64,000 bases of DNA from positions 434,001 to 498,000 of the forward strand of contig JBODTK010000012.1 in NCBI GenBank assembly GCA_050613775.1, written 5' to 3'. The notes under the pieces are model-generated. The model made no database searches. It was given only the letters and a program-made list of their open reading frames with translations, and was not told the origin of the DNA. The DNA is from Neocallimastix sp. 'constans' (taxonomy: Eukaryota). The position numbers were made by a program, and so were the translations under genes. Shown one piece after another: positions 22,128-63,800 of the stretch; position 1 is the stretch's first letter; each line of letters begins with the position of its first letter.

Positions 22128-24388
22128 AACTTCTCCCAGTAAGAGATACCGAATATGGCGTACTTTGGAGGAACATTTCGAAAAATTTCATTTCGAAAAG
22201 TTTCATTTCGGAAAATTTACATAAATAATTTCATTTGAAATTTTGCGAAATACCACACACTCGCGTACTTTATCATATTATTATTTAATTAATTCATTAT
22301 TCATTATTAATATTAAATATTATTATTTAATAATTCATTATTCATTATTATTTAAATTTTCCGTATTAGTTCAGGTTTATTTCTTTTGTTTTAATACTTT
22401 GATCTAATAAATATTAAATATACAATTAGCATATTTAATATTACTTATTAATAAGATTATTTTATCTTTTTCTTTATAAAATAAAAAAAAAAAAAAGAAA
22501 TTCATTATATATATTTTCCCCTTTATTTCATATTAATATATATATGTATATATAAAACTACAAAGATTAAAACTTTTTTTTTTTTTTTACCTCTCTACTT
22601 ATATTTATTAATAAATTAATAAATAAATTTCTATAAACTATACTTTTATAATTGTTAATAACGATATTAATAATTTTTAATAAATTATATATTAAATATC
22701 TTTTTTTTTTTTTTTTTTTTAATAAATAATTTAATATCTTTTCATCTATAATTATTATGAAAATGAAACAACTATTTAATTTTAGATATTTTATATTTAT
22801 TATTAATTAGCTGTTATTTATTATTAATTAATATTTATTTATTATAAAATAGTTATTATTATTAAATAATATTTATTTATTATTAAATAAGAGCTATTAT
22901 TATTAATTAATAGTTATTATTAAATAATATCTAATTGTAGATATTTCATTAATTAGTTATTATTTATGATTTATTATTCCAATTATTTTTATTTAATAAT
23001 AAGTTATAATTAATAATAATATTATCATATTTATTAATTAAATAATAATAATTAATATTAAACTATTTTTATTTTTAAAAATTTTAATTTTTTTGTTTAA
23101 AATGAATAACAATGATTTTGAGATTGTGCTAAAAAAAGATATTGAATAAAGCTATTTTAATGTAAATAGGAAAAGAACCAATTATTCAAAATAAAGCAAT
23201 CATAAATAATAATAAATTAATGAAATAATGAAATAAAAATAAAATAAATTAAAACAACGAAAATAAAATCAAAAATTTTAAATAATATGATTATAATCTA
23301 ATAATAATAAATAATATGATTATAACCTAATAATAATAAATAATAATATGTAATATGAGAGAGATATTTAGCCAATGTGTAACAAATTTGTTTTATGTAT
23401 GAATTGCATAAAACAAACCATAAAAACAGTTAATTAACTCTTTATTTTTTATATTAAATTTTTATGCCGCTTTGAACATAAATTAAGTAATGGATAAATA
23501 ATAAAATTATGAAATAATTTTTTTTTTTATTTCAACGGCCATAAATTTAAATTCTAATTAATAATAAAATAAAAATAAAAAAAAAAAAATTTAAATTCTA
23601 ATTAATAATAAAATAAAAATAAAAAAAAAAAATTTAAATTCTAATTAATAATAAAATAAAAATAAAAAAAAAAATTTAAATTCTAATTAATAATAAAATA
23701 AAAATAAAAAAAAAAAATTAAATATTCTTACACAAACTAATAATTTATTGAGGACATTTAAATTCTAATTAATAATAAAATAAAATAAAAATTTAAATTC
23801 CAATTAATAATAAAATAAAAAATAAAAAAAAAAATTAAATATTCTGACATAAACTAATCATTTATTGAGGACATTAATATAGGATAACAAAAATTTATTG
23901 GTATAAATTTATAATTAATAATTATAAAATTAAAGATATAAGTAAAAAAAATTATTATACATAAAATTAAATAAAATTAAGTAAAAAAAATTAAAATGAA
24001 ATAAAATTTTAAATATTAATTATATTATAATCATTACTATAAATAAATAAGTAAATATAAAAAATATTGTATATAAAAACATCATTTTTTCCTTTCCATT
24101 TGTAATTTTTTTTTTTTTTAATTCCAATTTTAATTTTAATTTTAATATATATAAATTGTATTTTTATTTTTGTATATATAAATATAAAATATTTATTATC
24201 ATTTTTTATTTATTTATAAAATTTGTATTATAGATTATTATTTTATTTTTTAAATATAATTAGAAGATTTCAAACAGAAAATATATATATTTTATTTTAT
24301 AATAAACAAATTAAAATTAAATCTTCATATAAAACTTTTTTTATTTTTATAATTCAATTATTATTATTAACTTTCATAAATAAATAAA

Positions 24389-25999: not shown

Positions 26000-26024
26000 A
26001 TGAAATGAAATAATATAGGATAAC

Positions 26025-26055
<31 letters not shown>

Positions 26056-26957
26056 ATTAAGTCCTTATATAGTTTAAATGCAAAAAAAAGTAAAGATAAA
26101 ATATTAAAAAAAATTTTATAATTTTTTATTATTTTTGTAAATATATATATTTGATATATATATATATATATTAAAAAATACTTTATAATTTTTTATTTTT
26201 TTTTTTTTTTGTAAATATATATATTTGATATATATATTAAAAAAATTTTATAAATTTTTATTTTTTTTGTAAATATATATATTTGATATATATATATTAA
26301 AAAAATTTATTAGAGCAATCATTAATATCTTATATATAATTTGTAATATAACAATATCGAATAAGGATTTTTTCTTTTTAATAATAATAATAAAAATAAT
26401 TAAAAGATTGAAAAAAATAATATATATATATAATCTTTATTTTTATTTTAAATTTGTAAAGTGTTGGGGAGTGTTTATAAATAAATTTATTTATTATAAA
26501 TTATAAATTCAGTTATAATATGTATATATATATATTAAAAAAAACAATTTTACTATAATACTAATAAAAATTAGAAAGATTTTTTAATATTTAGGAGTTC
26601 ATTTGATTTAGTTTCATCACATAAAATATTTATATATTTATTTTTATTGTATTTAATTCCTATCCTAAAAAATATTATATATAAATAGTTTACTATATTT
26701 ACATATTTATTAATTTCACGTTATATCATTTAAAAAAAAAAAATTATTTATTCTATTCTTTTTTTTTTTTTTTATTATTATTATTTTTTATGTGTAATCA
26801 TAGCAATAAAAGGATATTCTCGGATGGGAATTCTTTTATAGTCTTTCACTCTTAACATTTTATTTACCTTTTCATTAATTTTTATATGATAACTTTACAG
26901 AAAATAATTACATTAGTCCGAATTATATTAATTATATTAATTATATTATTATTATTT

Positions 26958-27065
26958 TTTTATCTTTTTTTTTTATTATTTTATTACATGTATTTTATCA
27001 AATATTTAATTAATAAAGATGAAACAAGTTTGTTGCCGTTAAAAAAAAAAAAAAAAAAAAAAAAA
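26958..27065 (+). mobile_element. Short poly(A)-tailed retroposed insertion
   Basis: Absent from the left arm (~13570-13580); ends in ~A25; flanked by ATTATTATTATTT at 26945-26957 and 27066-27078. Confidence 0.6.
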
Positions 27066-27299
27066 ATTATTATTATTTGTAAATTAATCTTGTTTTATAT
27101 GAAATACATTATTTTATTTATTTAAATAATTTCATTGTATTATTAAAAAGTTATAAATAATATTAATAAGATAAATTTTACTGTACATTTTAATCTTTGT
27201 TATTAACAAAAATCATTATTATATGTTAATAAACCTTAAATATTGAAATAAAAATTATTAAATACAATCAATAATAAGTTGTTTATTTTATATTTTAAT

Positions 27300-28438
27300 G
27301 TTAGTCTCTATAATATTACTCGAGGATTGAGAATAATTCTTCTTTCAGCTGTCTGTGTTATTTCTCAATTACGATGCTTTAGAAAATGGAAAAACTCATC
27401 ATGTATTATTAATTATCTCACTAATAATATTTCTACTATGTCACATTACTCATGAACTAAAGAATCAAGGACTTTGGATAAGAAATTAAATGATAAAAAA
27501 ACAAGTGAAATAAAAATGTTTTATTGGGAAAGAGAAGTTTTCAAACCTTCAAAAGCTAAAAAAGCAATTATTTACAAGGAGAATGATTTTGGATTTATTT
27601 CAGAAATCAAAAACTTAACATTTCGACATCCTAAATATCAGTTGGGATTCTTTTGGATTTCTCGAATTAGGTGTGATTTTAAATTTGACATTAGTATTTC
27701 CATTAAAGAAAAGTAGTCTCAGAAGATTGCCCTAAATGTTGCCCTTGTTGTGGTGTTATTGTATCTAGCTTTTCTCACTGGATCTTTGCCTGTAAAGAAT
27801 TGGAAAATTACAGAAATAAGTCTTTACCTTTTCTAGATGATCTCTTTTTGAAGTTTGCAATGATAATTGAACAAAAATCCTTGGATGTTTCTTTTGATTC
27901 AGAAAAGGATTATGATAATAATATTTATTACTTTATATTGAGTGCTCCTCTTGGGGGTTCAATATATGAAAAAATTAAACTTAATGATGGGGAACAAAGA
28001 TAATTAGTTGACAATATTTTTAAACAAAGTTCAACTTCGTTGATTATTCCGTATTTTGTGGGAATTGCGGAGTTTCTAACAAACGTAATACCTTTAATTT
28101 GTCGATCTTTTAAATTGATGATGAAATGATATTCCGTTGAATCTACCGTTGCCGAGAGCGTCGACGTCGAAATGATAAGGTATGGATTTTCACCTCCCAG
28201 TGAAAAAACTAATACAGATTCGTTAGATAACACTAATACTGAAATTATTACTCGCAATAATGGACGTGGTGTTATCATCGATGAATGGGAAAATTTAGAG
28301 GCTATTGCTTCTAACGCACTTTTATAATTTTATGATATATAATATTTTATTTCATGTATTTTATTATTTTTTTTTTAAAATCATGTAATTTTATTATTAT
28401 TATAAATTAAAAAAATTTTTCTATAAGTCAAAAAAAAA
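27300..28438 (+). mobile_element. 5'-truncated copy of the same LINE family as 13763-17424
   Basis: Aligns to the reverse complement of ~13775-14889 and ends in an A-tract. Flanked by atattt(t)aat; the left arm has the empty site at ~13360-13370. Confidence 0.88.
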
Positions 28439-28714
28439 ATATTTAATTTTTTCATTTATTTAAATATAAAATTTATATATTTATAATGTTATTATTTACT
28501 TTTTTTCTTTTCTAAATTTTAAATTATTATTTCTTGAATAAAAATAAAAAAAAAATAAAAAATAAAAAAATAAAAAATAAAAAATAAAAAGAATTCCTAT
28601 TTTTACTATTATTACACAAAACAATAAAATTAACAAAAATAAACACATTGATTTTTAAATTTGCTTATTTTATTATATATTTATTTAATGTAATCTTATT
28701 TATATATTAAAATA

Positions 28715-29277: not shown

Positions 29278-32050
29278 GTCCCCCCTCAAATCAAACTTTC
29301 CTGCTGATAGTTTGATTTGATATTTAATACTTAGTTAGTTATTTCAATTGAAAATTCATTCCTGAATCTTTCCATAAGTGACCTGTTCAAGTACTTTGTA
29401 AATCCATCTGCCAGGTTATCTTGTGTTCTTACGTAAGAAAGTTTTATTTTCTTATCATTAATTAATTCTCTTATATGATGGTATCTAATATCTATGCGCT
29501 TTGATATTCTATTTGTAGATTGATTTATGCTATTATGGATTGCTGCCTTATTGTCGACATTAATGTTTACACAATTTAAATTAATATTAAGTTCCTTAAA
29601 TAAGTTCATGCACCATAGAGTGTGTTTTGCACATTCACTAAGGTTGTAGTACTCTGCTTCTGCTGTGGATGTTGCAACACATTGTTGCAGTTTTGAACAC
29701 TAATTTGTTGGTGAGTCTCCAACAATAAACAGAAAACCTGAGGTTGATCTTCTTGTTTTAAGATCTCCTGCATAATCCGCATCTGCCAATATTCTTAATG
29801 AATCCTTTTTTGAAAGTTTGATACAACAATTAATTGTTCCTTTTGGTATCTAAAAATTCTTTTAACATATTCCTAGTCTTCTAGGGTCTAGTACTTGTGG
29901 CTAAATAGAGTAGGTCTCTTATAGCGCTTCTATACTCCGTATCATTAAATTTCATTTTTCTTAGTTGATCATCCTCTATCGGATTTGGCGCCCTTACGGG
30001 TTTACTTGTGTTTAACTCAAATTTCTTTAATAAATCATTTATATATCCTTTTTGGAGTAATATATATCAGTCTTGGAATCTTACAAATTTTATTCCGATA
30101 ACCAATCTACATTTCCTGCATCCTTTATATTAAAGACGCTCTTAATTAAATTTTTGTTTAGTTTTATATCTTCTTTATTTCCTGCTATCAATATGCCGTC
30201 TACATATACTAATAAGATGCAAACTATTTTACCATTATTGTCTTGTTTAATATGTATACAAGGTTCACTAATTAGTCTCTTGAATTTCATTTGTAGTAAT
30301 TCTTTATTTAATTTATTCGTTCTATTCCCTTCTGGATTGTTTTAAACCATATAACGCTTTATTTAATTTCCAGTAACCCTTTCTATAAGATGAGTGCCCT
30401 TCTGGTGCTCACATTTAAATTTCTCCGTTCAGAGTTGCATTAAGGTAAGCAGAATTAATATCTATTTGTACAATTTCAAAATCCTTTTGAACCGTAATTG
30501 CTGTTATTAATCGAAGAGAGTCTTGTTTTAATGTTGGTGAAAATGTTTCTTTATAGTCGATTCCATATTTTTGACTGAAGCCTCTTGCTACCAGTCTAGC
30601 AATTCTTTTTATGATATTGCCGCAATCATCCTTTTTATATTTAAAGACCCACTTTGATGACACTAAGTTTGAATTATGTGGGATGTTGAATACTAATGTG
30701 TTAGGTTCACTTAAATTATTCTTTGCTGTTGTTTTTTTCATACTTGTTTTTTGTTTCCTGATACTAGGGTCTGTGGTTCAGTTTTCTGTTTTTTTCCTAT
30801 TTGTTAATATTTGATTGATTTCTCTGTCTGTATTATTAATAAATGGGATGCTTGTGGTGTTGTATGGTGGGACACTCCCCCTGATTTCGGAAGGAGGAAG
30901 AAAATTTGATTGAATATTAGATAGGGAAAATGTAATCCTGGAATTAGCAGCGCTATCCTCGAAAAATTCAACAGTACGGGAAAAAATAATTTTATTGTTG
31001 ATAATATCCAAAATTTTATAGGTTTTAGGATTTTCACTATAACCAAGAAAAATTCCAGGTGAAGCATTGTTATCAGACTTGCTCCTAAAAGACTTAGGAA
31101 TGTAGAAGAAAACTCTACAACCAAAAACTTTAAAGCGAGAATAGTCTACTTTGAAATTTGTGATAATTTCGAAAGGAATTTTATTATTAATGCCACGATG
31201 AGGTATACGATTATGAATATAATTAGCTGTATCTGCAGCATATTCCCATAATTGGTGGCTTAATTGTGAGTCACTAAGAAGACTTTGGAATTTGATATTG
31301 CTGAATTCTGTACCATTGTCTGTTTGGATGTAAGAGATAGTCTTGTTTAAAATGTTTTTAACTTTGATATACCATGTATAGAAAATGGAGAAAACGTCAC
31401 TTTTGTTTAAGATAAAGAATACCCATCCAAATTTGGAATAATCGTCAAGGAAGGTAAGGATGTATTTGTTTCCATGTAGAGATTCATTTAGTGGTCCTAT
31501 TAAGTCCATATAGATTAAAGTGAAACATGATTTCATACCGATATGAATTCTGTTAAATGGTCTGTTTTTCAATTTGGATTGTGAGCAAATGTCACAATGA
31601 TTATCTATATTAATTTCAATAATTTGTTTTTAATGGTATTGATACCAAAATAGCCTAATCGTCGATGCCATAATTTAATTTTATCAATCTTGGCAATATT
31701 ATATGTATTGGTAATAGTTATTGACTTTTGTTGGTATTGATTGAATGTTAATGGCTTACTAGAGGTCCAGATTGTGAAAATGTGTTGATTATTAGCTATT
31801 ATGTCAGAGATTCGGATACCATTATTGTCATATATAGAGACTGCTGATTTATTTCGAATATTATGAAAGACGATTTTGAACTTTAGTTGTAAAAGCCTAC
31901 TAACTGACATGATATTCTTTTTAACTCCTGGAATATAATATATATCGTTCAATGTGAATTTCTTTTTGCCAATATATCCAATAAATTGTCCTGAAATTAC
32001 TGCTGTCATTAATTCTCCATTAGCTGTAGGGATAGGTTCATTACACTTCT
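29029..32050 (-). mobile_element. Degenerate 5'-truncated Ty1/Copia LTR retrotransposon (PR remnant, IN, RT, RNase H, PPT, 3' LTR)
   Basis: LWHRRLG; YMDLIGP...LDDYS...TDNGTEF; SKWVFKYK...ARLVARGFSQKYGIDY.ETFSP; LVYVDG; VDNKAAI...IDIRYHHIRE...NLADGFTK. IN precedes RT. Many stops and frameshifts, plus an internal deletion in the integrase. Confidence 0.95.
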
Positions 32051-34916: not shown

Positions 34917-35378
34917 TTTTTTTTTTTTTTTGCTTTAATTAATATTATAATAATAAGAATAAATAATTAAATAATTATTACATATATTTAATATTTTATG
35001 AAAATTAAATTAATATATATATATATTTATCAATTATTGTATTATATTTATTTTAGTAAATATTATTACTAATTATTTATTAATAAGCCATTTAGAAATT
35101 CTAATCAGTAGTACTTCATATATAAACATCAAGTAAATTTCAATCAATTTCATTTTATAAAGTGAACTATAAGATTATTATTATAAATAAATAGTTCATA
35201 AAAATTAAAAATAGATGAAAAAATAACAACCAAAAGGAAACTTTAATGTATATAAAAAATATATATTTTTTCAATATTTAGTATAAAAAAAAATTGTTTA
35301 TTCACAAATTGATTGTTAAAAATTAAAAACAAACGAACAAACAAACAAATAAACTAATAAATAAATAAGAAAGAAAAA

Positions 35379-38300
35379 ATGATTTCAATAAAAAAAAGAA
35401 ATTCCTCTAAAAGTAAATTAAATAACTTTGCTATAACAAATTACAATGACAATATATTTATTGCGAGTAAAAAGGGAAAATTAAAAATTATTAAATTTTT
35501 AGTAGAAAGAGGTATTGATGTCGATGTTATCGACGAAGAAGGCAATACTATTTTAATGTTGGCCTGTCAACGTGGTCAATTAAAAATTGTTGAATATTTG
35601 GTTTCAAAAGGGGCAAATATTAACTATAAAAATGAATTAGGTAAGACGGCTTTTATGTTCGCTTGTGAAAGCGGTCATTTAAATATTGTTAAATATTTAT
35701 TTAATCAAGGAGCTGATATTAAAGCTCGTGATAAAAATGGTTATACTGCCTTCATTTATGCTTGTCAATTTAATGATACTCCTGAAGTAGTGGACTTTTT
35801 AGTATCAAAATTTGTTAATATATTTGATACCAATAGTTTAGGCCAAAATGCTTTAATGTTGGCCTCGAGTGAAGGTCATATTAATATTGTTAAATATCTT
35901 TCTGGTCAACATCAAATGGACGTAAATAAAAGAGATTCAGAAAAGAGGACAGCATTAATTTTAGCTGCTCTTAATGGTCATGAAGACGTTGTTCGTTATT
36001 TAATTTCTAGAGGGGCAGATGTAAATAGTATGGATCATCGTTTAAATTCAGCATTAATGTTAGTAGCAGAAACAGGTAATGTAATTATCACTCATTTATT
36101 AATTAGAAATCATGCTAATATTAATGCTAGAAATTGTTATGGAGATTCCGCTTTACATGCAGCTTGTAATGAAAATCATATAGAAATCGTAAAACTTTTA
36201 GTTGAAAATGGAGCTGATATTGATGATAAAGAAAAGAGTGGTATGACTCCATTAGCATATGCTAGTAGAGCAGGCCATCTTGATATTGTTAAATATTTAG
36301 TGGAACATGGTGCCAATATTAATCTTCAAGTTTCAAATGGCTATACCCCATTATTGTTTGCCATTGAAAATGGTCATACAGATGTCGTAGAATATTTAAT
36401 TGAACAAAAAGCAGAATTCAATATAAACAATCAAAAATATCAAAATGTTTTCCTTGAATCAAATTCTGAGATAACTAATATAATTATTAATCATTTAGCT
36501 TCAAATAATTTAGAGAGTAATGATTGGTCAAATTTTAATACTATTATGAAGAATGATCGTATGTCTTTCTTTGATTACTTAATTAAGGAAGGAATTCAAA
36601 ATGGTTCATTTAATAATTATAATATTTTCATGGATTCTTGTATTCATGGCTATAAACCTATTATTGAACTTTTACTTCATCATCAAATAGATATTAATGT
36701 TCAAGATAGCCTTGGTCGTACAGCTTTAATGTATGCTACTGAAAATAGCCAATGGGAAATTATTAAACTATTAGTAGAATATGGTACTGATGTTAACATT
36801 TGTGATGGTAATGGATGGACAGCTTTAATGTACGCCTGTAGTAAAAATAAAAGTATAATCGTTGAATATTTAATAGACAATGGGGCTGAAATTAATACTG
36901 CTAATTCCGAAGGATGGAATGCCTTAATGTTTTCTTGCGTTTCAGGAAATGAAATTATTATTAAATATTTAATTCAAGAGGGAGCTGATGTTAATTCAAA
37001 AAGTAAAGATGGACTCTCTCCATTACTTCTTGCTTGTCAATATGGCAATTTAAATATCGTTAATTATTTAATTAAGCATTCTGCAAATATTATGGTTAGA
37101 GATAAGGAAGGTAAAACCGCACTTATGTATGCTACCGAATATGGATTTCTTTCTATTGTAGAATTATTAATTAAGGAAGGTATTGATGTGAATGCTGAGG
37201 ATCAATATGGTGATACGGCCTATACTATTGCTAAGCGTAAAGAATTACGTGACATTAAAAAATTGGTAAAGAAGGCGATGACGGATAATATTGATTTTGA
37301 TTATGATTTTGATGCCAGCCAACAGGATCAGTGGAAAGAATTTCATGTAAATATTAAGTATGGTGATATAGAAGCTGTTAAAGAATACGTGGAACAAGGT
37401 GAAGGGGATATTAAGGAGGATACTGAAGATCATTGGTCACCCCTTCATATTGCTGCCTATTATAATCAATTAGATATTGTAAAATATCTTGTGGAGAATG
37501 GATTTGATGTTAACATCAAATGTAATGGTTTTACCTCACTTTATTTTGCTTGTCGTAATTGTAATATGGATATTGTGAACTATCTTTTAGAGGAAGGAGC
37601 AGAGGTGAATACCATTAATCAGAATCGTTTAACCGCATTAGAAATTGCCTGTTATTCAAATGCTTATCAAATTATGAAAATCTTATTCCGTCAAGGTGTC
37701 GATATGGAAGTCAATCCATACTTGGAATATAATCTTTTAAAGATTGCTGTTGATAATACAAATTTACGTATGATGAAACTCCTATTAAATGTTGGTGAAA
37801 TAGATATCAATGCCAGAAATGCTAATGGTTCCACGATCTTACATTACATTGCTCATAAAAATATTTATATGATGGCCAATGCTTTACTTAAATTAAGTGT
37901 GATAGATGTAGATTGTGAGGATGACTTTGGTAATACCCCACTTCATATTGCATGTGAATATGGGCATGTACATTTAATACAACTTTTAATTCATTATCGT
38001 GCCGATATCAATTTTAAAAATCATCATTCTTATACCCCACTTCTCATTGCCAGTGAGAATGGGCAAATTGATGTTGTTCGTGTATTAGTGGAAAAACGGG
38101 CAAAATTAGAAAGTACTAATGATCAACATTTGAATGCACTTCATATAGCATGTAAAAATAATAATCGCAAAATTGCCCAAATTCTTTTGGATCATAAAGC
38201 TAATATTAATGCTGCAACTATTACGGGCTGGACCCCTCTTCATATTGCCGTTCAACATCAATACCCATTATTATTGAAATGCCTTCTCAATTATAAACCT

Positions 38301-38834
38301 GATTGTAATTTAGAGACCAATAATCGTCTTACACCGATGGATATTGCTTACCGTAATAAGGATGGCTATGCATTAAGCATTTTGGAAGGATATTACAGCC
38401 AAAATCTTGAAATTATTTCCGATGCCAATACCATTATTAATGAAATTAAAAATGGTAATTTATATGTAGCTTCTAATATGATTCGATCAGGAGAAATTTC
38501 TTTGGATTATGTTGATGAATATGGATGGACTGCACTTCATTGGGCCAGTTACAAAGGTTACACCGAGGTTGTTCGAGATTTAGTGAACTATGGTGCCGAT
38601 TTAGAAGCGAAAACAAGGGATACATTTGATGAACGTGAGCCATTGAAAGGAAAAACCGCTAAAGATCTTGCAGAGATGTATCAATATAAGGATATTGAAG
38701 CTCTCATTAAATCGAAGATCACTGAACTTACTATCTGTAAAATTATTAATACGTCTTCTGAAATGGCCGAAAATGCTAAAGATTTTAATGAAGCTTTCAG
38801 TGGATTAAATGATGCTCTAAAAGCTAAAAAGTAA
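35379..38834 (+). CDS. Intronless ankyrin-repeat protein, 1151 aa (roughly 27-30 ANK repeats)
   Basis: Recurring G.T(A/P)L..A...G...IV.YL...GA..N units along almost the whole length. Confidence 0.96.
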   Translation: MISIKKRNSSKSKLNNFAITNYNDNIFIASKKGKLKIIKFLVERGIDVDVIDEEGNTILMLACQRGQLKIVEYLVSKGANINYKNELGKTAFMFACESGHLNIVKYLFNQGADIKARDKNGYTAFIYACQFNDTPEVVDFLVSKFVNIFDTNSLGQNALMLASSEGHINIVKYLSGQHQMDVNKRDSEKRTALILAALNGHEDVVRYLISRGADVNSMDHRLNSALMLVAETGNVIITHLLIRNHANINARNCYGDSALHAACNENHIEIVKLLVENGADIDDKEKSGMTPLAYASRAGHLDIVKYLVEHGANINLQVSNGYTPLLFAIENGHTDVVEYLIEQKAEFNINNQKYQNVFLESNSEITNIIINHLASNNLESNDWSNFNTIMKNDRMSFFDYLIKEGIQNGSFNNYNIFMDSCIHGYKPIIELLLHHQIDINVQDSLGRTALMYATENSQWEIIKLLVEYGTDVNICDGNGWTALMYACSKNKSIIVEYLIDNGAEINTANSEGWNALMFSCVSGNEIIIKYLIQEGADVNSKSKDGLSPLLLACQYGNLNIVNYLIKHSANIMVRDKEGKTALMYATEYGFLSIVELLIKEGIDVNAEDQYGDTAYTIAKRKELRDIKKLVKKAMTDNIDFDYDFDASQQDQWKEFHVNIKYGDIEAVKEYVEQGEGDIKEDTEDHWSPLHIAAYYNQLDIVKYLVENGFDVNIKCNGFTSLYFACRNCNMDIVNYLLEEGAEVNTINQNRLTALEIACYSNAYQIMKILFRQGVDMEVNPYLEYNLLKIAVDNTNLRMMKLLLNVGEIDINARNANGSTILHYIAHKNIYMMANALLKLSVIDVDCEDDFGNTPLHIACEYGHVHLIQLLIHYRADINFKNHHSYTPLLIASENGQIDVVRVLVEKRAKLESTNDQHLNALHIACKNNNRKIAQILLDHKANINAATITGWTPLHIAVQHQYPLLLKCLLNYKPDCNLETNNRLTPMDIAYRNKDGYALSILEGYYSQNLEIISDANTIINEIKNGNLYVASNMIRSGEISLDYVDEYGWTALHWASYKGYTEVVRDLVNYGADLEAKTRDTFDEREPLKGKTAKDLAEMYQYKDIEALIKSKITELTICKIINTSSEMAENAKDFNEAFSGLNDALKAKK

Positions 38835-51810: not shown

Positions 51811-52792
51811 TAGTTTTATAATTTTAATAATCACTTTTAATTTTCATAATGTTTAATAAATTTTAATAAAGATTTAAAATTAATTATTAGAAAACAAGTG
51901 TTCTAATAAACCAAATTTTTAGTGTTATTTTAATAAAACATTTTTAATTCGTAAATAACTTATACAGTTATTATTTGAATAAATTGAAATTATCACTTTT
52001 TAATTCTATAATAAAATTAAGATAATTTCTAAAATATATCATTTGTGATACGAAACCACTATAAATATCATATTTAGGTAGAATCTTTAGGTTAAAGAAA
52101 TACTTAAATATTATTGGTCAGCAGTAATTTAATAGTAATATATATAATTTTATAATAATAATTTTAAACGGAGAATTCTTTTATTTATTAGTTTATACTT
52201 ATGGTAAATTAATTCGCATAAATAGCTATTTTTTTATATTTTAGTTTATGTAACGGAGGTGCTTCTATTGTAACGGCGGGACGTGATATAGAAACACAGA
52301 AAGGAAAAAACTCAATAGGTTTACACTATCTTTATAAATAATTCGTTTTATTAGAAATATTTTTTTATTAATTATAAAATTTAAAATAATTATTAATATT
52401 AATCAACAAGGTAATATTTCGAATTACTTATACGTTAATTATTATTAATAAAAGCACGAAGAAAAATATTTTCATTCGTGAAGTTCGCACTATTTATACT
52501 TTTAACGGAAAAACAGTTTTAACATGTAAAAATAATTTTAAAGAAATATTTAGAAATATGTTTGTAATAATTAATAATGTAAAGTTTCTAGAATATAGAT
52601 TTTAATTGATGAAAATGAATCTTATCAAAAAAGAATAAAATAATTTATATAATAAGAATTTCTAAATTCATTTCGGTTGAATTACGAACCGAAAGAATCT
52701 TTAACTTTCTATAATTTTATACAGAAAGAATATTCAAGAAGATATTATTAATAATTAATAAAATAATTAATAAAATAATTATTTATGCAAAA

Positions 52793-52865
52793 TGGGTTGA
52801 GGTGTGAGTCGAACCCATGAAGTATTGATCATGGTCAATGTAACTAACCATTGAACCAGAGTTCT
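52793..52865 (-). ncRNA. tRNA-like Pol III cassette (pseudo-tRNA/SINE head), not a canonical tRNA
   Basis: A box TGGTTCAATGG (52858-52848), stem ATTGA/TCAAT with a 6-nt loop CCATGA, B box GGTTCGACTC (52815-52806), 3' CCA then TTTT. The acceptor stem does not pair. Confidence 0.7.
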
Positions 52866-52879
52866 AATTTTACTAACTG

Positions 52880-53684
52880 TAATACAGAATGAACAAATAA
52901 TACTAATTGTGCTAGAATAATATAAATTATTCTAACCTTATAGATTATTCTAACCTTATAGATTATTCTATTCTATATAATTGGAACTTTCCAATATTCT
53001 TCAAATATTACTAAATAGAAATCTTAAGTTAATAAATCACTAATTAACTTATAATTCCTTTTTGAATTATCGATCCGATTCTATTATAATGTATTAAAAA
53101 TCTTTAGCCAAGAATATTGTCCTTGCCACTTAATATATTAATATTATATTTCTTTTGTATTATGTTATATTGAAAATAATCAAATCTATTTAATTAGTTA
53201 TTAAAATTTTCGTTATCAATTTAAATTTATTTTTAATTACTAAATTTAACTAAACCACAATAAAATATTCTGTATAATCTCTTTATTTTTATTTTATATA
53301 TATTAGTATTAAACTATTATTAAATAATTAATAATTCAATAATATATAACTACTATTTATAACAATAATATTATTAACTAAAATAATAATTCAATTTCAA
53401 TTTAAATGTTTTATTTATAAAAATAATTAGTAATTAGTTTATTAAAAAAATAGTTAGGCTTTACAAATTTTAATTTGATAAAAAAATATAAATACATGTA
53501 ATTTTAGTGAAATAAAATATAATCAATAACTTTCTTTTTATTAAATAAATAATTATATTATTATTTTTCTTTTATAAATTTAAATAAATAAATATTGATT
53601 TTAAAACAAATTATTTTTTTTTATTGTAATTTTATTATTTGTGTTAATTATTATTATATTCCTAAAATTATATGAACCATACCA
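52880..53684 (+). repeat. 5' LTR (TAATAC...ATACCA)
   Basis: Direct repeat of 59123-59927. Confidence 0.95.
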
Positions 53685-53692
53685 TGAAAAAT

Positions 53693-53710
53693 TGGTGGAG
53701 ATATCGGGGA
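53693..53710 (+). promoter_or_regulatory. Primer binding site, tRNA-Ala type
   Basis: TGGTGGAGATATCGGGGA resembles the complement of a eukaryotic tRNA-Ala 3' end (...CCCCGGCAUCUCCACCA). Confidence 0.8.
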
Positions 53711-54192
53711 ATATAATAATAAATTAATACATTGGGGATAAAATTATAATATTAATAAATAATTTTTCTAATAAAACAAATATTTTTTTAAAAAAGAAAA
53801 CAATTTTTATATTTTTAACTAATTATTATTAATTGTTAAAAATATTAATTAATATTAAATTAAACTAATATTCGTGCATAGATTTCCGGGTTAAGTTTAT
53901 CCTACATAGTAATTGGGCTAGTAGGCTCTGGACTGCTATTTTTTATATTGAAAATAGTAACCGTGGCACACGCGTGGCATGACACCTTTCAAGAGGTAAG
54001 CTGCACGTCAGATAGTGTGTACTATCAGATTGCACGATTATTATAATTTAATAAATGATTAATAATAATAAATAATTAATAATTTTATTAGTTAAAAGAT
54101 TTATTTTTTTTAATTTTTTTTTATTTTTACTTTTTATAACAATTTATACATTACGAGGTTTAGCATTCTATAGATACAATAAATTTTATTTA

Positions 54193-55110
54193 ATGAGAAC
54201 ATCCAGTACTTCCAGTACTCCAACAGAGAGTACTCCAGAAAGTAAGCTTAGCTTCCGAGAATTAAAGAAAGAATTAAAAGATTTTGAAAAGCTTACTAAA
54301 CAAAACCTAGACATCAATTCCTGGGCAAACGAGTTAAAGGCATGGATAAAATACCAACATATCAAGGATCCTGAAACTATTTTTACTGCTTGTATATTAA
54401 CGGCTTCTGGAGAACCAAGAGAAATTATCCAAGAACTAGAAGATGGAAATGACCTTATTGAAGATGAAGATTCTGATTTCGATAGCGATAGTGAAGGAGA
54501 AGATGATGAAGAAAGTGAATCTACTAGCACCTACCCAAGCCTTGATGAAATCATAAATCATCTGAAGACTTTCTATGGACTTAAAGAAGATCAAACCAAT
54601 TTGTTACGAGAATTGCGTTCCATGAAAATAAAGAAGAACGAGAAAGTTAAAGATTTTAATGTCCGTTATAGATCTTTGTACCATAAATTGGATAAAAAGA
54701 GAAGAAGAAAAATTAGTGTTTTAGATTATGCAGATTCCTTAACCAATAATCCCGACGCATGGAGAAAGGTTATGCTTAAAGACAATATTTCTATTACTAA
54801 AGCATTCGCTATAGCTGAAAAAGTTGATCGTTTATCTATTAAAAATAGTACTGAATATTATGATAAGACTCGTTACAATCTCCTTAACTCTAAAAGTAAT
54901 TTTAATAAGAACATTTCAAATGATTTTAACAAACCAAAAACCCACAAAAATGTATCTATAGAAAATCTCACTAACAAGATGAAAGAAATGAAAATTAGTA
55001 CTTGCTGGTTTTGTAGCAATGAAGGACATACCAAACGAAACTGTCCTAAATTAAATTCTATATTGGAAAATAACCGCATAAAGTTTTATGAAAATCATTT
55101 AAACCACTAA
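54193..55110 (+). CDS. gag: Gag (305 aa) with CCHC zinc knuckle
   Basis: CWFCSNEGHTKRNC; retrotransposon gag-like NEKVKDFNVRYRSL; acidic insert. Confidence 0.93.
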   Translation: MRTSSTSSTPTESTPESKLSFRELKKELKDFEKLTKQNLDINSWANELKAWIKYQHIKDPETIFTACILTASGEPREIIQELEDGNDLIEDEDSDFDSDSEGEDDEESESTSTYPSLDEIINHLKTFYGLKEDQTNLLRELRSMKIKKNEKVKDFNVRYRSLYHKLDKKRRRKISVLDYADSLTNNPDAWRKVMLKDNISITKAFAIAEKVDRLSIKNSTEYYDKTRYNLLNSKSNFNKNISNDFNKPKTHKNVSIENLTNKMKEMKISTCWFCSNEGHTKRNCPKLNSILENNRIKFYENHLNH

Positions 55111-55150
55111 AAGGGAGTAGAAGCACTCCCATCGTCAAAAAAATTGCTTC
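55098..55150 (+). promoter_or_regulatory. -1 programmed ribosomal frameshift signal (U UUA AAC + H-type pseudoknot)
   Basis: Heptamer 55098-55104 is in the gag frame; 8-nt spacer; stem GGGAGT/ACTCCC (55113-55130); loop GAAGC is complementary to GCTTC (55146-55150). Confidence 0.88.
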
Positions 55151-58100
55151 AGTCTGCCATCGTTCCAAAACAGTTGACTTAAAAGAAGATGATGATTATG
55201 AAGAAACTGCTGATTTCCAAGAAGGTACTACTACGGATTATTACGAAGATTTTGATGATGAGTCGGATGGTTCCAAAGAATTGGATTACTTAGTAAACGT
55301 TATAAAGAGAAAGGCAAATCCTAAAGACGAAGAGACTAGTGACCAAAGAGGAAAGAGGGTTCACCGTAGTCTAAGAGATGATCCTAAGCCAATAGTTACT
55401 CCAGGTTTACGAAAACAAAAAGAAAATCAATTAAGGGGAACATCGCGACCAGTCAAAAAGCCAACAACTCAATTACATCCTTCGATTATGGCTCAACCCA
55501 GAATAGAGAAAGAAAAGAGGATTGAGAAAGAGCTAAGAGATAAGGAAAGAGCTAGTACTAGTACTTCTGTGGAAAATAATAAAAATAGTAATGTTAATAT
55601 TATTAATGAAGAAACTTCTCAGGAAGGAAATAATTCTAAACAAACTTTAAATAAATTAATTCAAGAAAAATCATCAGAAAAGTCAACTGAAATTATGCCA
55701 ACTAGAATTCCAAAAAGAATACAAATGCAAACTGATTGTGATAGTTATGACGTGATCAAAGATTTAAACTCCAGTAATTGCAATATTACATTTGGACAAT
55801 TATTGGACGTTGCTCCAAAGATACGGTCTCAAGTATCACAAGGACTTAAATTAGAAAAGAATAATACTAAAATTTCAGGTGCAGTGGATAATATGTGTGC
55901 TACTACAATAATAACGAACAATATAGATCATACATATAAAAGTAAACATCATGAACCACAAGAAGATGATATTGCTATGGTTGATGTAATAGTAGATGGA
56001 GTTCGTGGTAAGGCTTTAATAGATTCATGTAGCAACTTAAGTATTATCACAAAGCAATTTTTAGATAAATTACCTTATCAGTATGAACCTATAGGAGTTA
56101 GTGCAGGACGAATACGTTTAGCAACAATGAATGATGATTACTCAGAAGATGTGTTAATCAAAGTTCCCGTAAAAATTAATGAACTAGAACTACTTGTTAC
56201 GTGTAGAATTATAGACAAGGAGGATCCATTCTATGATATATTAATCAACCTCAAAACTCAAATTGATAACCAGTTATTTATACATCCAATTAGATATAGT
56301 CTTTGTCGATTTAATGATCAAGGTTTAATTGAAGAAATTGCACCTATTAATAATGAATATGATGACGAAGAAAAATTATTATGTGTAATCAAAGCATTGA
56401 ATCACCAAGAAGCTAAGCAACAATTGAAAACGATTGAAGGATTACCACCCATAAAATATATATATGACACAGTTTTTCAAAGTACAATTAATTCAAATTA
56501 TAGAGAAGCTATTACTAAATTACTTGAAGAATATATTGATATAATTGTAACTTCTTCTGAAGAATTAACACCTTCAGATTTATCACCACACAAAATTATT
56601 CTTAAGGAAGGAGTTAAACCTATTAAACAAAAATTTTATCGACTTAGTAAATTAAAAACAGATATCTTAAAAGAAGAATTAACCAAACTCATATATAAAC
56701 GATTAATTGAATCTTCATGTTCAGAATGGTCATCACCAGTAGTACTTGTGCCTAAAAAGAACGGTAAATGGCGCCTGTGTATTGACCATAGGAAAGTAAA
56801 TGAAGCAACTAAGAAGGATTCTTATTCTTTACCAAATATTGAGGAAATTTTTGATAGCTTAGATGGAGCAAAAATCTTCTCAACATTAGATCTTTATTCC
56901 GGTTATCATCAAATATTAATGGATGATGATAGTGTTGAAATCACTACCTTTACAACTAAGTTCGGAAACTACCAATTCAAGGTAATGCCCTTCGGTTTAA
57001 CAGGTGCTCCAGCTACATTCCAAAGAGAAATGAACCGTATACTATTTCCCTTAATAGGAAAATGCGTCTATAACTTTATCGATGATATTTTAATCTACTC
57101 AAGAACTGAAGAAGAACACCTAGAACATCTTAAACAAGTCTTAGAAATATTCAAGGAACATAAGTTAAAAATCAATATTGAAAAATGTTCTTTCATGCAA
57201 ACTGAAGTAGAAGTACTTGGACATAAGGTATCCTCAGAAGGTTTAAGTCCATTGGAAAACAAAGTTGAAGCTATTAAAGAATGGAAGGCTCCCTCTAACA
57301 TTCATGAACTTCGATCATTTTTAGGAGCCATTGGATATTATAGAAATTTTATTAAGGACTTTGCAAAAGTTACTGCTCCTCTCTGCACTCTATTAAGAAA
57401 AGGTATTAAGTTTGAATGGAAAAAGGAACAAGAAGAAAGTTTTAAAATTCTTAAGGAAAGATTAATCAATGCCCCAATATTAAGATTTCCTAGATTTGAT
57501 AGAGAATTTATTATAAGAACAGATGCTTCCTATGATGGAATAGGAGGTGTGCTTTTACAAAAGGATGATGAAACTGGAAAGGAGCATCCCGTTCATTATA
57601 TTAGTAGAAGTTTATCTAAATCGGAAAAGAATTATGGAATTACGGATCTAGAAGGTGCTGCTCTAATTTACTGTATTAATAAATTAAAATCTTATATTAT
57701 GGGAAATCCTAAGCAAACTATAGTATATACAGATCATAGACCATTAATCGGATTACTTAAAAGTAAGGAACCACAAAATTCTCGTCATACTAGATGGTGT
57801 TTGACTGTCAGTATGTTAGGAATTGATTTACGATATGAAACTGGAAAGAATAATGTTGTCGCAGATGCTTTATCAAGAATGAAAAATGAAAAAGAAAAAG
57901 TTGTCTTAACAACACAAATTATCAAGGAACAAGATGAAAACCTGCTTTCAAGAACCATTAAGGAATTTATTGAAGAAAAATTTACGACAATTGATGGTGT
58001 GGACTACTTTGTTGATGGCAATAATTATAGAAAATTAGTTACAGATACAAAAGAAAAACTTCAATTAATTTTTCAAGCGCACAGTATAGGACACGAAGGC

Positions 58101-59099
58101 TATTACAAGACATATCAACGTTTGAAAAAGAGCTACTATTGGAACAATATGGTTAATGACATTAAGCGAATTATAGGTAAATGTGAAAAATGTCAATTAA
58201 ATAAATCTCAACCATACCCTGAACCAACGGAAGATAAACCAACTGAAGTGGAAGGACCATTTACACACTTAGGATTGGACATTATAGGACCTCTAAGTAA
58301 AACCAGAAATAATAATCAATATATAATCGTTGTGGTTGATTATTTTACTAAATGGGTTGAGGCAGAGCCCACTGAAAATGTTACTTCTCAGGATGTGATA
58401 AAATTTTTAATTAATGTATTTGCTCGACACGGTGTACCTCAAATTATCACTACTGATAATGGAACACAATTTACATCAGATATGACAAAAATCTTCCTTG
58501 ATTTATATGATGTATATGTTAAATTTATCACTCCATATCATCCTGAAAGCAATGGTTTAGTTGAGAATCGTAATAAAGAAATTGGAAAATTATTACGATT
58601 ACTAGGACAACAACACAAAGAATGGGATGAAATTTTACCATCTGCACTTTGGGCTTTAAGAACTACTAAAAACTCAATCATCAACCATTCAAGTTTTGAA
58701 TTAGTTTATGGAAGGGAGGACCAACAACCTTTTGACATTGCTGCCAGACCAACTAAGGGTATAAATAAGTCTTCTGACGAAATTCTACTGGAAAAATTTG
58801 TATCACACTACCAATGGGTAATGGAGGCCGCATCTAATATCAAAAATGCTTCGAAATATTGGGCTACTAGGAGAGAAGAAAAGACCAGTATGAATCAAGC
58901 TAAAAGAATAAAACCAGGTGATTTAGTACTAGTAAGAAATTTTAATCGAACTAAATTAGAACCTTACTTTGTTGGACCTATGAAAGTGGTAAAGAAACAA
59001 TTCAATACAGTCACTTTAGCCGATCCTGCTACTAATATACAAATGAATCGTAATGTTCATTTGAAAAATATTGTCAAGTTTAACTCAGCTTCTACCTAG
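55098..59099 (+). CDS. pol: Pol (PR-RT-RH-IN), entered from gag by -1 frameshift
   Basis: LIDSC protease; WSSPVVLVPKK, MPFGL, FIDD RT; TDAS...DALSR RNase H; HHCC + D-D-E integrase with GPM (GPY/F-like) tail; no chromodomain. Frame is open from TTTAAAC at 55098. Confidence 0.95.
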   Translation, partial: FKPLKGSRSTPIVKKIASVCHRSKTVDLKEDDDYEETADFQEGTTTDYYEDFDDESDGSKELDYLVNVIKRKANPKDEETSDQRGKRVHRSLRDDPKPIVTPGLRKQKENQLRGTSRPVKKPTTQLHPSIMAQPRIEKEKRIEKELRDKERASTSTSVENNKNSNVNIINEETSQEGNNSKQTLNKLIQEKSSEKSTEIMPTRIPKRIQMQTDCDSYDVIKDLNSSNCNITFGQLLDVAPKIRSQVSQGLKLEKNNTKISGAVDNMCATTIITNNIDHTYKSKHHEPQEDDIAMVDVIVDGVRGKALIDSCSNLSIITKQFLDKLPYQYEPIGVSAGRIRLATMNDDYSEDVLIKVPVKINELELLVTCRIIDKEDPFYDILINLKTQIDNQLFIHPIRYSLCRFNDQGLIEEIAPINNEYDDEEKLLCVIKALNHQEAKQQLKTIEGLPPIKYIYDTVFQSTINSNYREAITKLLEEYIDIIVTSSEELTPSDLSPHKIILKEGVKPIKQKFYRLSKLKTDILKEELTKLIYKRLIESSCSEWSSPVVLVPKKNGKWRLCIDHRKVNEATKKDSYSLPNIEEIFDSLDGAKIFSTLDLYSGYHQILMDDDSVEITTFTTKFGNYQFKVMPFGLTGAPATFQREMNRILFPLIGKCVYNFIDDILIYSRTEEEHLEHLKQVLEIFKEHKLKINIEKCSFMQTEVEVLGHKVSSEGLSPLENKVEAIKEWKAPSNIHELRSFLGAIGYYRNFIKDFAKVTAPLCTLLRKGIKFEWKKEQEESFKILKERLINAPILRFPRFDREFIIRTDASYDGIGGVLLQKDDETGKEHPVHYISRSLSKSEKNYGITDLEGAALIYCINKLKSYIMGNPKQTIVYTDHRPLIGLLKSKEPQNSRHTRWCLTVSMLGIDLRYETGKNNVVADALSRMKNEKEKVVLTTQIIKEQDENLLSRTIKEFIEEKFTTIDGVDYFVDGNNYRKLVTDTKEKLQLIFQAHSIGHEGYYKTYQRLKKSYYWNNMVNDIKRIIGKCEKCQLNKSQPYPEPTEDKPTEVEGPFTHLGLDIIGPLSKTRNNNQYIIVVVDYFTKWVEAEPTENVTSQDVIKFLINVFARHGVPQIITTDNGTQFTSDMTKIFLDLYDVYVKFITPYHPESNGLVENRNKEIGKLLRLLGQQHKEWDEILPSALWALRTTKNSIINHSSFELVYGREDQQPFDIAARPTKGINKSSDEILLEKFVSHYQWVMEAASNIKNASKYWATRREEKTSMNQAKRIKPGDLVLVRNFNRTKLEPYFVGPMKVVKKQFNTVTLADPATNIQMNRNVHLKNIVKFNSAST

Positions 59100-59122: not shown

Positions 59123-59927
59123 TAATACAGAATGAACAAATAATACTAATTGTGCTAGAATAATATAAATTATTCTAACCTTATAGATTATTCTAACCTT
59201 ATAGATTATTCTATTCTATATAATTGGAACTTTCCAATATTCTTCAAATATTACTAAATAGAAATCTTAAGTTAATAAATCACTAATTAACTTATAATTC
59301 CTTTTTGAATTATCGATCCGATTCTATTATAATGTATTAAAAATCTTTAGCCAAGAATATTGTCCTTGCCACTTAATATATTAATATTATATTTCTTTTG
59401 TATTATGTTATATTGAAAATAATCAAATCTATTTAATTAGTTATTAAAATTTTCGTTATCAATTTAAATTTATTTTTAATTACTAAATTTAACTAAACCA
59501 CAATAAAATATTCTGTATAATCTCTTTATTTTTATTTTATATATATTAGTATTAAACTATTATTAAATAATTAATAATTCAATAATATATAACTACTATT
59601 TATAACAATAATATTATTAACTAAAATAATAATTCAATTTCAATTTAAATGTTTTATTTATAAAAATAATTAGTAATTAGTTTATTAAAAAAATAGTTAG
59701 GCTTTACAAATTTTAATTTGATAAAAAAATATAAATACATGTAATTTTAGTGAAATAAAATATAATCAATAACTTTCTTTTTATTAAATAAATAATTATA
59801 TTATTATTTTTCTTTTATAAATTTAAATAAATAAATATTGATTTTAAAACAAATTATTTTTTTTTATTGTAATTTTATTATTTGTGTTAATTATTATTAT
59901 ATTCCTAAAATTATATGAACCATACCA
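59123..59927 (+). repeat. 3' LTR
   Basis: Direct repeat of 52880-53684. Confidence 0.95.
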
Positions 59928-61475
59928 ACTGTGATAAAGAATAGAATAATAATGATATTTTTAATTAAATTTTTAATAATTTATTATATAAAAATATATT
60001 ATTATATTCTTTACTATTAATAATTTTCTTATATTCTATATTAATAATTTTTATATTAGTTATATTTTATTATTTTTTTATATTAAATTTATGTAATAAA
60101 TTAATTTATATGATTGGTTTTAATAATGTAATTAAATAATATAAAATATGTATTATCCATATTATTTTATGAAGGGGGCCTTTCTGAGAAAAGAAATAGT
60201 AGAAATAGTAGTGATAATGAAATAGGAATAATAATTGAAAGGTTTCCCATATTGTTATAATAATAAATATTAATATTAATAAAGTTATTTTTAACAATAA
60301 AATAATTATATAATTTATAAATAATAAATATTTTTAATAATAGTTCTTTAAATAAAATTTATAATGTGTAATAATAAATTCTTTTAGTGTAATTTAGTAG
60401 TTATTTAATTTATCTATTTATTTAATGTTCACACTCCTTTTCTAATATGAACCTCAACAACTGAAGATTTCGTTACAGTTTAGTATAGTTAAAGAGAGAT
60501 ATTAATGTTTTATTATATTTATTGATTTATAAATTAGATGAATATATATATTTGAGATAATTAATTATAATATTTATATGTGTAATAATAATTGATGTAA
60601 TAATTAATAATTAATAATAAATAAAGAGAATATTAAAAAGATATATTTATTACTTTATTTTGTACTTTTGTATGTGTTATTTCTATTTAATATTAGAATA
60701 TATTATTTTGTCATAATTCCTTATTGTCATTGCCCATAACTAAATATTAATTTAGATACATAAATAAAATATCGTGCTACAGTATTTAAATAAAAATGGA
60801 AAATTGTTAATAAAATTATAATAAAATATAATAAAGAATTAATTAGTTAAATTATATATATCACAATAATAAATAATAATATAAAATTATTCAAATTTAT
60901 TTAATTAGTTAATAGCCAATAGGATTTAATTTATAGTAAATTAGAAGTATAAAAAGAAAAATTATTATAAATTTTTTAAAGGGTGGTTTTTTTGGAGAAA
61001 ATAGATATACATTAGTTAAAATAAATATATTCGGGGAATATATTTATTTATAAAAATAATATAGTAATAAGTTAGAAATAAATAGTTAATAAGATTTTTA
61101 ATAATATTTTATTATAAAATTGTATTACGACATAATAAATTAAATAAAATAAAACGACAAAACTATAATTCTTAAAATTCTGTTATAAAATAACGTGTGT
61201 AGTAATTATATATTTCTATATTAGAATATACTATTTTATTTTATACTATCTTGCTAACTCACAAAAATATTGATACTAAAAATATTAATAAAAAAATTAA
61301 TAAAATAACGTATCAAAATTTTGGAGCCCAACATGGGGGGAAGCAAGATTTAATAAAGAAGTATGAAAATAATAAGAAAATAATAATTACAAATTAATTA
61401 TTTAATAATAAACCATAATCTTATAATTTTTTTTTTTATATATTCATTATCATTAAAAATTACAAAAATCCTAAA

Positions 61476-62803
61476 ATGTTTAATGCGGCTAAATTGCAAA
61501 GAATCTTACCATTGTTAATCAACTATGGTAAAGATGTGGAAAGTTGGATAACAGATTTTTCAAAAACGATGGAACTTTATGATATAATGGAACTTCGACG
61601 CATTTTTACATGGGCTAAAGAGGCCGTGGAAGAAGATACTCAAGGCGCATTAAATTCATTAATAAAAGGAAAAGGTGACTCAATCAGATAATCCTACATT
61701 AAAGGAGATTCAAGATACAATAGAAGAACATTTACATATAACTGAGAATGATAAATGTTCTGTTCTTAAATCTTTAAAAATTAATGAAAACGAATCGTTA
61801 AAAAAGTTTAATTACAAATATAAAAAATTATATAATAAACTCAGTTTGGAATATAGAAGACTTATTTCGGTCAAAGATTATACAAATGCTATTAGTTCTC
61901 GAGTATTTCCCTATTCAAGAGTTATGATAGCGGAATGTGAAACAATAAATGAAGCATTTAAAATAGCTGAAGTAGCTGAAGAAGCTGAAAAAGAAATATC
62001 CAATGCAAATCAAAGGAGAAAAATTAATAATAATATGGGAACAAACATCATGTTTACTCAAAATCATACTAATAATAATGTATTATTGAATCACCCCTTT
62101 TTACGAAAATCTTCACTCAAGACAACTACCAATGAATCAAGATGGAAATAATACCTTTATTAGAGAAAACAATTGGAATTTTAGAGCTAGCTCATGGAAC
62201 AATAATAACTCTAGGAATCCAAATTATTCGTATCATGCGGTAAACTTAAGAAATAATAGAAATTATTATTCAAATAACAGTAATAATTACATTAATAGAA
62301 TGCCAAGAAGGAATTCAATAAAATGGATATAATAATAAAATCAATTATGATAGGCATTCGAACAATAACAAAATCAACAATCCTTATATGAATTTTAATA
62401 AAATGAATAATACGAACAAAATGAGTAATAATCAATTACTCAATGAAGGAGAAGAAAACCAAAATAATATTGATTTAAAAAATATAAATAATATGATGAC
62501 TAATAATAATAAAGAATATAATAAACAAATGACTAATGGTAACACAATTAACACTAATAATATGACTCAATCGTTTAGCTACCAAAATAGGAAAAAAGTA
62601 TCATAATAGAACAGAAAACAACAATGTCATTAATACCTTAGTAACCAAAAATAATAATAATTTTAATGATGATAAACAATTATCATGTGAATTGTTATCG
62701 TTGTACATTGGAGGGACATAGAGCTTCAGAATGTCCGTACAAATTCAAACAATTGGCTGAAATGGAAGAACAGGGTTTGAGTAATAAACCTTTAAACCAA
62801 TAA
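61476..62803 (+). pseudogene. gag: Decayed gag of the older Gypsy element
   Basis: Fragments DVESWITDF..., LKSLKINENESLKKFNYKYKKLYNKL (compare LRSMKIKKNEKVKDFNVRYRSLYHKL); CYRCTLEGHRASEC knuckle at 62693-62734; stops and frameshifts; ends P-L-N-Q-* at TTTAAAC. Confidence 0.88.
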
Positions 62804-63800
62804 ATGGGAGAAGGATAACTTCCATTAACCAAACCAAAAAAATAATGTTCAAAAATAATGACTCATGTAACAATAAAAATAATATAATGACAATGGTAGA
62901 TGATCAAACAATACTACTAATAATTAATAATAGTATTAATGAAAAACAAAATTGTAATTACCTTAACATAAACAATAATAATAATACTACACAAAATATA
63001 TTAAATAGACCAATTGAAATTGTAACAGCAGCTACTCGAAATTCAAGAAATAATATTAGCAAATATAATGAAAAGTCATACAATAGAAAAGAAGTGAGAT
63101 TTAATTTAAAAGACAATCCAAAACCAATACAAACGGCAGCTATGAGTCATAATAATATTAATAAGAATAATAATAGTAATAATAATTATAATATTAAAAA
63201 TAAAAATAATACCAATTATAGTAATACGAATGCTAATAACAATTATAATAATATTAATAATCATAATAATAATATGAATAATGATCATGAAAATAATAAT
63301 ATGAATAATAATAATAAAATTAATTATAATATAGATAATTATAATGGCAATAATAACGACAGTAATAATGAAGAAAATAATATTTATAATACCTTTAAGG
63401 AAAATATTGACATAAATAATGATGATTATATTACTAATAATATAAACACTAGTCAAACAGTTGAACTAGGAAGTATAGAATCTAATGAATTGTAATCATG
63501 ATAGAAGAATCTGAAAATAATGAAAACAATGGTGATGCTGATGAAAGTAATAATATTAAAAATCATAATAAGTCCTTATTATGATAATGTAGAGAATTCC
63601 ATTAGAGCAAATAATAAAAATAAGAATGAAGCTCCTAATAAAAAAAAATTGTAATACGCAAAAACTAGAGTATCTTGATCCTTCTTTTATCACAAAAAAA
63701 AAATATTAGAAAAGTTAAAAACAAAAATAAAGAAGAGAGAATTAAAGATATAAAAAAATAAAATGAAAGAAATGAATACCAATACCAAGACAAGTGAAAC
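62791..63800 (+). pseudogene. Asn-rich N-terminal pol remnant of the older Gypsy; no protease or RT visible before AT-rich DNA resumes
   Basis: Follows the frameshift site; KEVRFNLKDNPKPI resembles KRVHRSLRDDPKPI of the intact element's pol N-terminus. Confidence 0.6.

Follow-up and report, generated by a model that had tools for sequence, protein, structure and literature searches.

Two LTR insertions at one ACTG beside a predicted Pol III promoter inside a gut-fungus mobile element

In the anaerobic gut fungus Neocallimastix sp. 'constans', an intact Ty3/Gypsy element (A) and a second, different LTR (B) occupy one and the same ACTG, 11–14 nt upstream of the notional start of a tRNA-like cassette that is itself the head of a third, apparently mobile element (H). 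The stretch of DNA analysed here, hereafter the window, comprises 64,000 nt of contig JBODTK010000012.1 (positions 434,001 to 498,000; GC content 19.5%). On the sequence evidence, we propose that the Gypsy clade to which A and B would belong targets Pol III start regions, anchored in this case by the cassette, and for this single locus we put the probability of that reading at roughly 65%.

The tRNA-like cassette and the element that carries it

The features of H and its cassette, in window coordinates, are as follows.

52244–52248, plus strand: left 5-bp target-site duplication of H, GTTTA
52249–52879, minus strand: main part of H, 631 bp, non-coding
52792–52789, minus strand: T4 run directly past the cassette
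52793–52865, minus strand: tRNA-like cassette, 41% GC, without a cloverleaf
52815–52806, minus strand: B box, GGTTCGACTC
52858–52848, minus strand: A box, TGGTTCAATGG
60464–60477, minus strand: displaced 14-bp end of H, whose letters occur nowhere else in the window
60478–60482, plus strand: right 5-bp target-site duplication of H, GTTTA

Without its inserts, H consists of 52249–52879 joined to 60464–60477, which gives an element of 645 bp with TG...CA termini and 7-bp inverted ends; the insertions split it 14 bp from one end. Its end motif occurs twice, at 52249 and, 20 bp away, at 52269, and the target duplication is found only at the outer copy. An earlier note on this DNA had treated the cassette as a free-standing tRNA mimic, a view that no longer holds given its position within an apparently multi-copy mobile element.

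That H is repeated follows from contigs of four out of 24 listed public sequencing runs (X1, X2, X10 and X15 are among the run labels), which we aligned to positions 52300–53760. Among the loose contig ends listed for run X1, six continue from 52879 straight into the letters of 60464–60477; with such uninterrupted copies of H present, both inserts must be real additions. Sequencing depth in run X15 was 5632 for the H-flank contig and about 9400 for the LTR contigs, against a low-depth contig median of 29, and in run X10 the corresponding values were about 2300, 3830 and 16 (14 non-zero of 15 rows). If the low-depth contigs represent single-copy DNA of the same fungus, and with contig depth being a rough proxy for copy number, these values correspond to about 150–190 copies of H and 245–325 units of the LTR of A. 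H is thus apparently a multi-copy mobile element. In the window copy we saw neither a second LTR nor a primer site or polypurine tract, and a two-LTR miniature element is ruled out for this copy by the absence of an internal direct repeat. An element of this kind without a second LTR is what a solo LTR would look like; alternatively, H may be a MITE with 7-bp inverted ends.

The A and B boxes of the cassette are placed as in a tRNA gene, with 45 nt from T8 to T54, and they form the sole such pair in the window; among Markov-simulated windows, 1 of 200 contained one. The first T6 downstream of the cassette stands 233 nt past the notional +1. The A box, B box, CCA and T4 reported earlier are all present, although the CCA falls at notional positions 72–74 instead of 74–76 and the acceptor strands (positions 1–7, AGAACTC, and 66–72, CTCAACC) cannot pair. 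ARAGORN predicted no genes, and Rfam returned no tRNA match, so that a +1 at 52865 is notional; counted from it, the reported distance of 11–14 nt to the ACTG at 52876–52879 was confirmed. Folding (z = −1.76) gives no cloverleaf, and the acceptor, D, anticodon and T stems are not those expected of a tRNA gene. A stand-alone tRNA or tRNA pseudogene is ruled out by the ARAGORN and Rfam results, the unpaired acceptor and the location inside H. We regard the cassette as a likely internal Pol III promoter. A sigma-70 promoter scan gave an output on par with shuffled sequences and has no bearing on Pol III.

Variation among the run copies adds two details. Almost every run copy (16975 of 17210 depth units in X1) has another letter at 52828 than the window copy, which means that the short stem found where an anticodon would lie is less well formed across the H family than in the window copy. 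The variant table holds 29 rows for 52300–52795 and one for 52796–52879, with none in the A or B box; since AT-rich chance matches inflate the 29-row count, the scarcity of variants across the cassette is a weak hint.

Among described elements, H most resembles Helenus (TRIMp3), for which we refer to the accessible parts of PMC10886601. Helenus LTRs bear non-functional tRNA-like A/B cassettes and often persist as solo LTRs, fungal Helenus elements produce 5-bp target duplications, and the families reach hundreds of copies, with a longest named LTR of 323 bp. H shares with them the TG...CA ends, the 5-bp duplication, a tRNA-like cassette without a working cloverleaf followed by a T run, and an apparently high copy number. 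By eye, its cassette is similar to those of Helenus-6_PGr, Helenus-10_PTrit and several Puccinia families, and the distance from the end to the A box is 36 nt in H and 35 nt in Helenus-9_PSt. In contrast, H at 645 bp is longer than the LTRs, of at most 323 bp in that paper, that Pol III could read through, and it extends about 540 bp past the cassette and through the T6. The Helenus supplement has no entry under Neocallimast-, chytrid or Mucor. On sequence features, H thus resembles Helenus and would be better called Helenus-like than Helenus.

Gypsy element A and its integrase

Element A adjoins the cassette-bearing part of H and contains the following features.

52876–52879, plus strand: ACTG copy 1, the target site, 11–14 nt upstream of the notional +1 (52865)
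52880–53684, plus strand: 5′ LTR, 805 bp, TA...CA
53693–53710, plus strand: primer-binding site, 8 nt past the LTR
54076–55110, plus strand: gag frame, first Met at about 54193
55092–59099, plus strand: pol frame, open over 1335 aa
59110–59122, plus strand: polypurine-tract region
59123–59927, plus strand: 3′ LTR
59928–59931, plus strand: ACTG copy 2

The two LTRs are identical at 805 of 805 bases, which together with the ACTG on both sides and the open pol frame bears out the earlier description of a young Ty3/Gypsy. Hallmarks of that class were found: two LTRs, a primer site (which we take to be of the tRNA-Ala type), a polypurine tract similar to one that precedes the LTR of a Gypsy relative, L090, a target duplication, and gag followed by reverse transcriptase, RNase H and integrase. 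Gag shows a weak CCHC knuckle (E = 0.0025, below the Pfam cut-off). Pol lies in the −1 frame relative to gag, with a TTTAAAC at 55098–55104; Pfam identified reverse transcriptase, RNase H and the zinc finger and core of integrase in it, and for the protease a DS motif was recognized by eye. An A-rich spacer of 8–9 nt separates the LTR from the primer site in both A (53685–53692) and L090 (29–37); this spacer usually measures 1–3 nt.

The Pfam search detected no chromodomain in A pol, upholding the previous statement that its integrase lacks one. That statement had been paired with the claim that Ty3 lacks a chromodomain too, which is incorrect according to the accessible part of a cryo-EM preprint (10.1101/2021.07.27.453949): Ty3 has a vestigial chromodomain, residues 446–511, that contacts Brf1. 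The absence in A is therefore a difference from Ty3 and not a likeness. The same source reports that the SH3 domain of Ty3 touches TBP, and that TFIIIB upstream of the start site sets the cuts at −2 and −6. The integrase of A aligns with Ty3 Gag-Pol residues 1099–1439 of 1547 (E = 1.2e-18), a match that takes in the long linker and the SH3 domain, and ends 10 residues past the end of the SH3 alignment, so the 108 Ty3 residues holding the Brf1-binding chromodomain have no counterpart. When the C-terminal part alone was searched against the PDB, Ty3 was not among the 60 matches listed. The tail of A comprises 38 aa after the GPM motif. Among 106 proteins examined, 74 yielded this motif, and 72 of these have a tail of 33–48 aa.

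Short tails of this kind have a precedent in DGLT-A, Ty3/gypsy elements of Dictyostelium. As described in the accessible part of PMC5006619, the DGLT-A integrase has a 32-aa tail without a chromodomain, and the families insert 10–19, 13–16 and 13–33 bp upstream of tRNA coding regions; DGLT-A thus provides an example of targeting in a chromodomain-free layout. A shares with DGLT-A the Gypsy layout, the short chromodomain-less tail (38 and 32 aa) and an insertion distance of 11–14 nt compared with about 10–19 bp, inside both the 10–19 and the 13–33 bp windows. It differs in that its host is an anaerobic gut fungus and its target the tRNA-like head of another element. With Ty3 of Saccharomyces cerevisiae, A has in common a position near a predicted Pol III start and an integrase alignable as far as the SH3 domain, linker included, but it makes a 4-bp instead of a 5-bp duplication and has no Brf1-binding chromodomain. 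Other fungal Gypsy elements found just upstream of Pol III genes are Candida beta/Tca8 and Yarrowia Tyl3, Tyl6 and Ylt1 (PMC5911963, accessible part), and Tj1 of Schizosaccharomyces japonicus inserts within 12 bp (PMC4600332, accessible part). Tj1 self-primes and makes 5-bp duplications, whereas A has a tRNA-type primer site and a 4-bp duplication, and the hosts of these elements are all ascomycete yeasts, unlike that of A (PMC4600332, PMC5911963). According to PMC5911963, Ty3 also inserts at the tRNA relic ZOD1, so a functional tRNA is not required of a target.

Stacking at one ACTG and readings of the site

Two further features lie between A and the displaced end of H.

59932–60459, plus strand: insert B, with TG...CA ends and 528 bp long, probably a solo LTR from a related family
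60460–60463, plus strand: ACTG copy 3

Between the two pieces of H the order is therefore ACTG, A, ACTG, B, ACTG. The earlier account of the locus was real as far as it went, but it had overlooked the third ACTG, LTR B and element H. Both ends of B resemble the ends of A; a global alignment of B with the LTR of A scored 99, compared with a maximum of 83 among 30 shuffles, and one contig of run X10 fuses a B-like end to the primer-site spacer of A. With such an end on A's own spacer, B probably represents a sister family, of which it would be a solo LTR. For both inserts, a 5-bp duplication (AACTG) would fit the letters, but the LTRs would then end in C. In L090 the LTR is followed by an A of its own before a different flank; because this A belongs to the LTR, and because the LTRs then end in CA, we prefer a 4-bp duplication.

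Placement to the base, as proposed earlier for A, is strengthened by the finding that a different LTR uses the same ACTG. For any one duplication, we estimate the probability of being hit again by chance at about 1.5–6 per million (assuming 150–300 random insertions and a genome of 100–200 Mb), which makes chance very unlikely for two insertions at one 4-bp site. The sequence thus indicates a site that is targeted to the base. The earlier caution that one insertion cannot exclude chance is largely answered by the second LTR at the same ACTG. Accidental nesting among abundant repeats, or an assembly error that joined collapsed repeats, could be suspected because the region is repeat-dense, with a decayed second Gypsy about 300 bp to the right, and among the listed run contigs none spans the whole of 52300–53760. 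Yet the three ACTG copies and the outer GTTTA pair close in register, a misjoin would not duplicate every junction, and the empty site is present in the sequencing runs; we regard this explanation as highly improbable.

If the site is targeted, the question becomes what is recognized. Intact A adjoins the cassette, and B has been displaced away from it. From the solo state of B, we infer that B entered before A. With the cassette as anchor, the newest insert should adjoin the cassette, and A, the newer one if B is older, does so. The principal competing explanation is that the integrase recognizes some feature of the DNA itself, a sequence or structure close to H's terminus or LTR ends in general, with the A and B boxes as accidental neighbours. 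It can draw on the position of the ACTG, which is also 14–18 bp from the terminus of H, on a match of this terminus to the LTR start of L090 at 14 of 19 positions, on the lack of a Ty3-type chromodomain in A, and on the depths of H (about 150–190) and of LTR A (245–325), which are of the same order, as for a dedicated target. Against it, an anchor at the 14-bp end would place the newest insert beside that end, whereas intact A lies on the cassette side, and its spacing from the A box is within the range known for Pol III targeting. We therefore consider it improbable overall, at perhaps a one-in-five level of expectation; if B were younger than A, it would have landed 7 kb from the cassette, and recognition of sequence would be favoured.

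Alternatively, B could have hit H by chance, after which A joined B through a family preference for its own or related LTR ends. A abuts the start of B exactly, the ends of A and B are alike, and in L090 the 3′ LTR is directly followed by another TG-starting repeat, all of which would fit such tandem growth. However, B would still need a chance hit in a 10-bp window, at about 1–2.5 in 100,000 per insertion (assuming 200–500 Pol III units and 200 Mb), and we judge this course of events to be quite unlikely.

Targeting of the Pol III start region through the cassette, our preferred reading, could proceed in four steps. H would first insert, making its 5-bp duplication. TFIIIC would then bind the A and B boxes of H and position TFIIIB just upstream. 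Next, a B-family element would integrate where transcription is predicted to start, duplicating 4 bp, and would subsequently collapse to a solo LTR. Finally, A would enter at whichever ACTG was closest to the A box, as the boxes would still set the distance, and push B away. The integrase would make contact through its SH3 domain or some other part of its surface, which is presumably how DGLT-A does it; since the integrase of A ends before the Brf1-binding region of Ty3, this contact must differ from that of Ty3. In a wider and more tentative form, which we think doubtful but worth stating, a chromodomain-less Gypsy clade of gut fungi may have independently evolved base-precise Pol III targeting, with a high-copy Helenus-like promoter and not host tRNA genes as its main landing pad, where it would land 14 bp inside the end, sever it and stack serially; one transposon would thereby offer another a safe harbour.

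Further copies, significance and neighbourhood

Other insertions of the family would extend the argument beyond this locus. Among the contigs listed as coming loose before 52880, the 21 of run X1 agree at 0.68 with the polypurine tract; the 10 of run X2 agree at 0.96. Given the 0.68 agreement in X1, A probably has other left flanks besides H. A metagenome scan yielded two matches, one of which (L001) is a 3′ LTR of the A family (97.6%) and the other a bacterial chance match, with no 5′ flank between them. H had no matches in the genome contigs, where 76 distant Gypsy loci were found, and AT-rich chance matches only in five MAGs; four viral contig scans gave 0, 0, 1 (distant) and 0 matches, and none for H. 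Relatives in MAG contigs were 44–61% identical at best, with no tRNA-box pair beside an LTR. Several bacterial and archaeal MAGs of rumen or gut origin contain AT-rich, fungal-looking Gypsy contigs (L003–L006, L029 and L090–L109), which probably reflect binning contamination. In the literature searched, subscription papers and Repbase aside, we found nothing relevant on tRNA targeting or LTR biology of gut fungi, nor on Pol III-targeted nesting in tRNA-derived elements.

As a behaviour, Pol III targeting is known; what would set this case apart is its host group together with a duplication of 4 bp, a short integrase and the use of another element's promoter as target. In the accessible parts of PMC5911963 and PMC5006619, targeting of Pol III starts is described in social amoebae and in ascomycete yeasts, and it is accounted for there as adaptive in a compact genome. 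If our reading is correct, a repeat-rich, early-diverging fungus would put this explanation to the test, and the integrase of A would show the minimal surface sufficient for targeting without a Brf1-gripping chromodomain. Read in reverse, the insertions are possible evidence that Helenus-type cassettes recruit Pol III factors, a point left unvalidated in the accessible part of Kojima 2024 (PMC10886601). Gut fungi are hard to engineer, and an intact element that aims precisely might serve as an integration tool there.

The window contains several further features. The decayed second Gypsy lies at 60775–63772, about 300 bp to the right of H, is 72–80% like G001:C133 (L110/L095), and has broken frames; its primer site, at 61322, is a different one. 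A large inverted duplication at 13329–28467, with main arms 93–97% alike, includes two GH5 cellulase frames (18195–19796, minus strand, and 24380–25999, plus strand) and a LINE-type endonuclease fragment (15182–15907). Of the 14 proteins in the 90% cluster of a neighbouring cellulase, 3 are named, and all 3 are from Neocallimastix (N. californiae and N. lanati), in keeping with the host. The fragment at 30778–31629 derives from an integrase and includes an SH3 domain of retroviral type; we take it to be Copia-like, and it may represent a helper class for H. A frame of 1157 aa with about 20 ankyrin repeats occupies 35361–38834.
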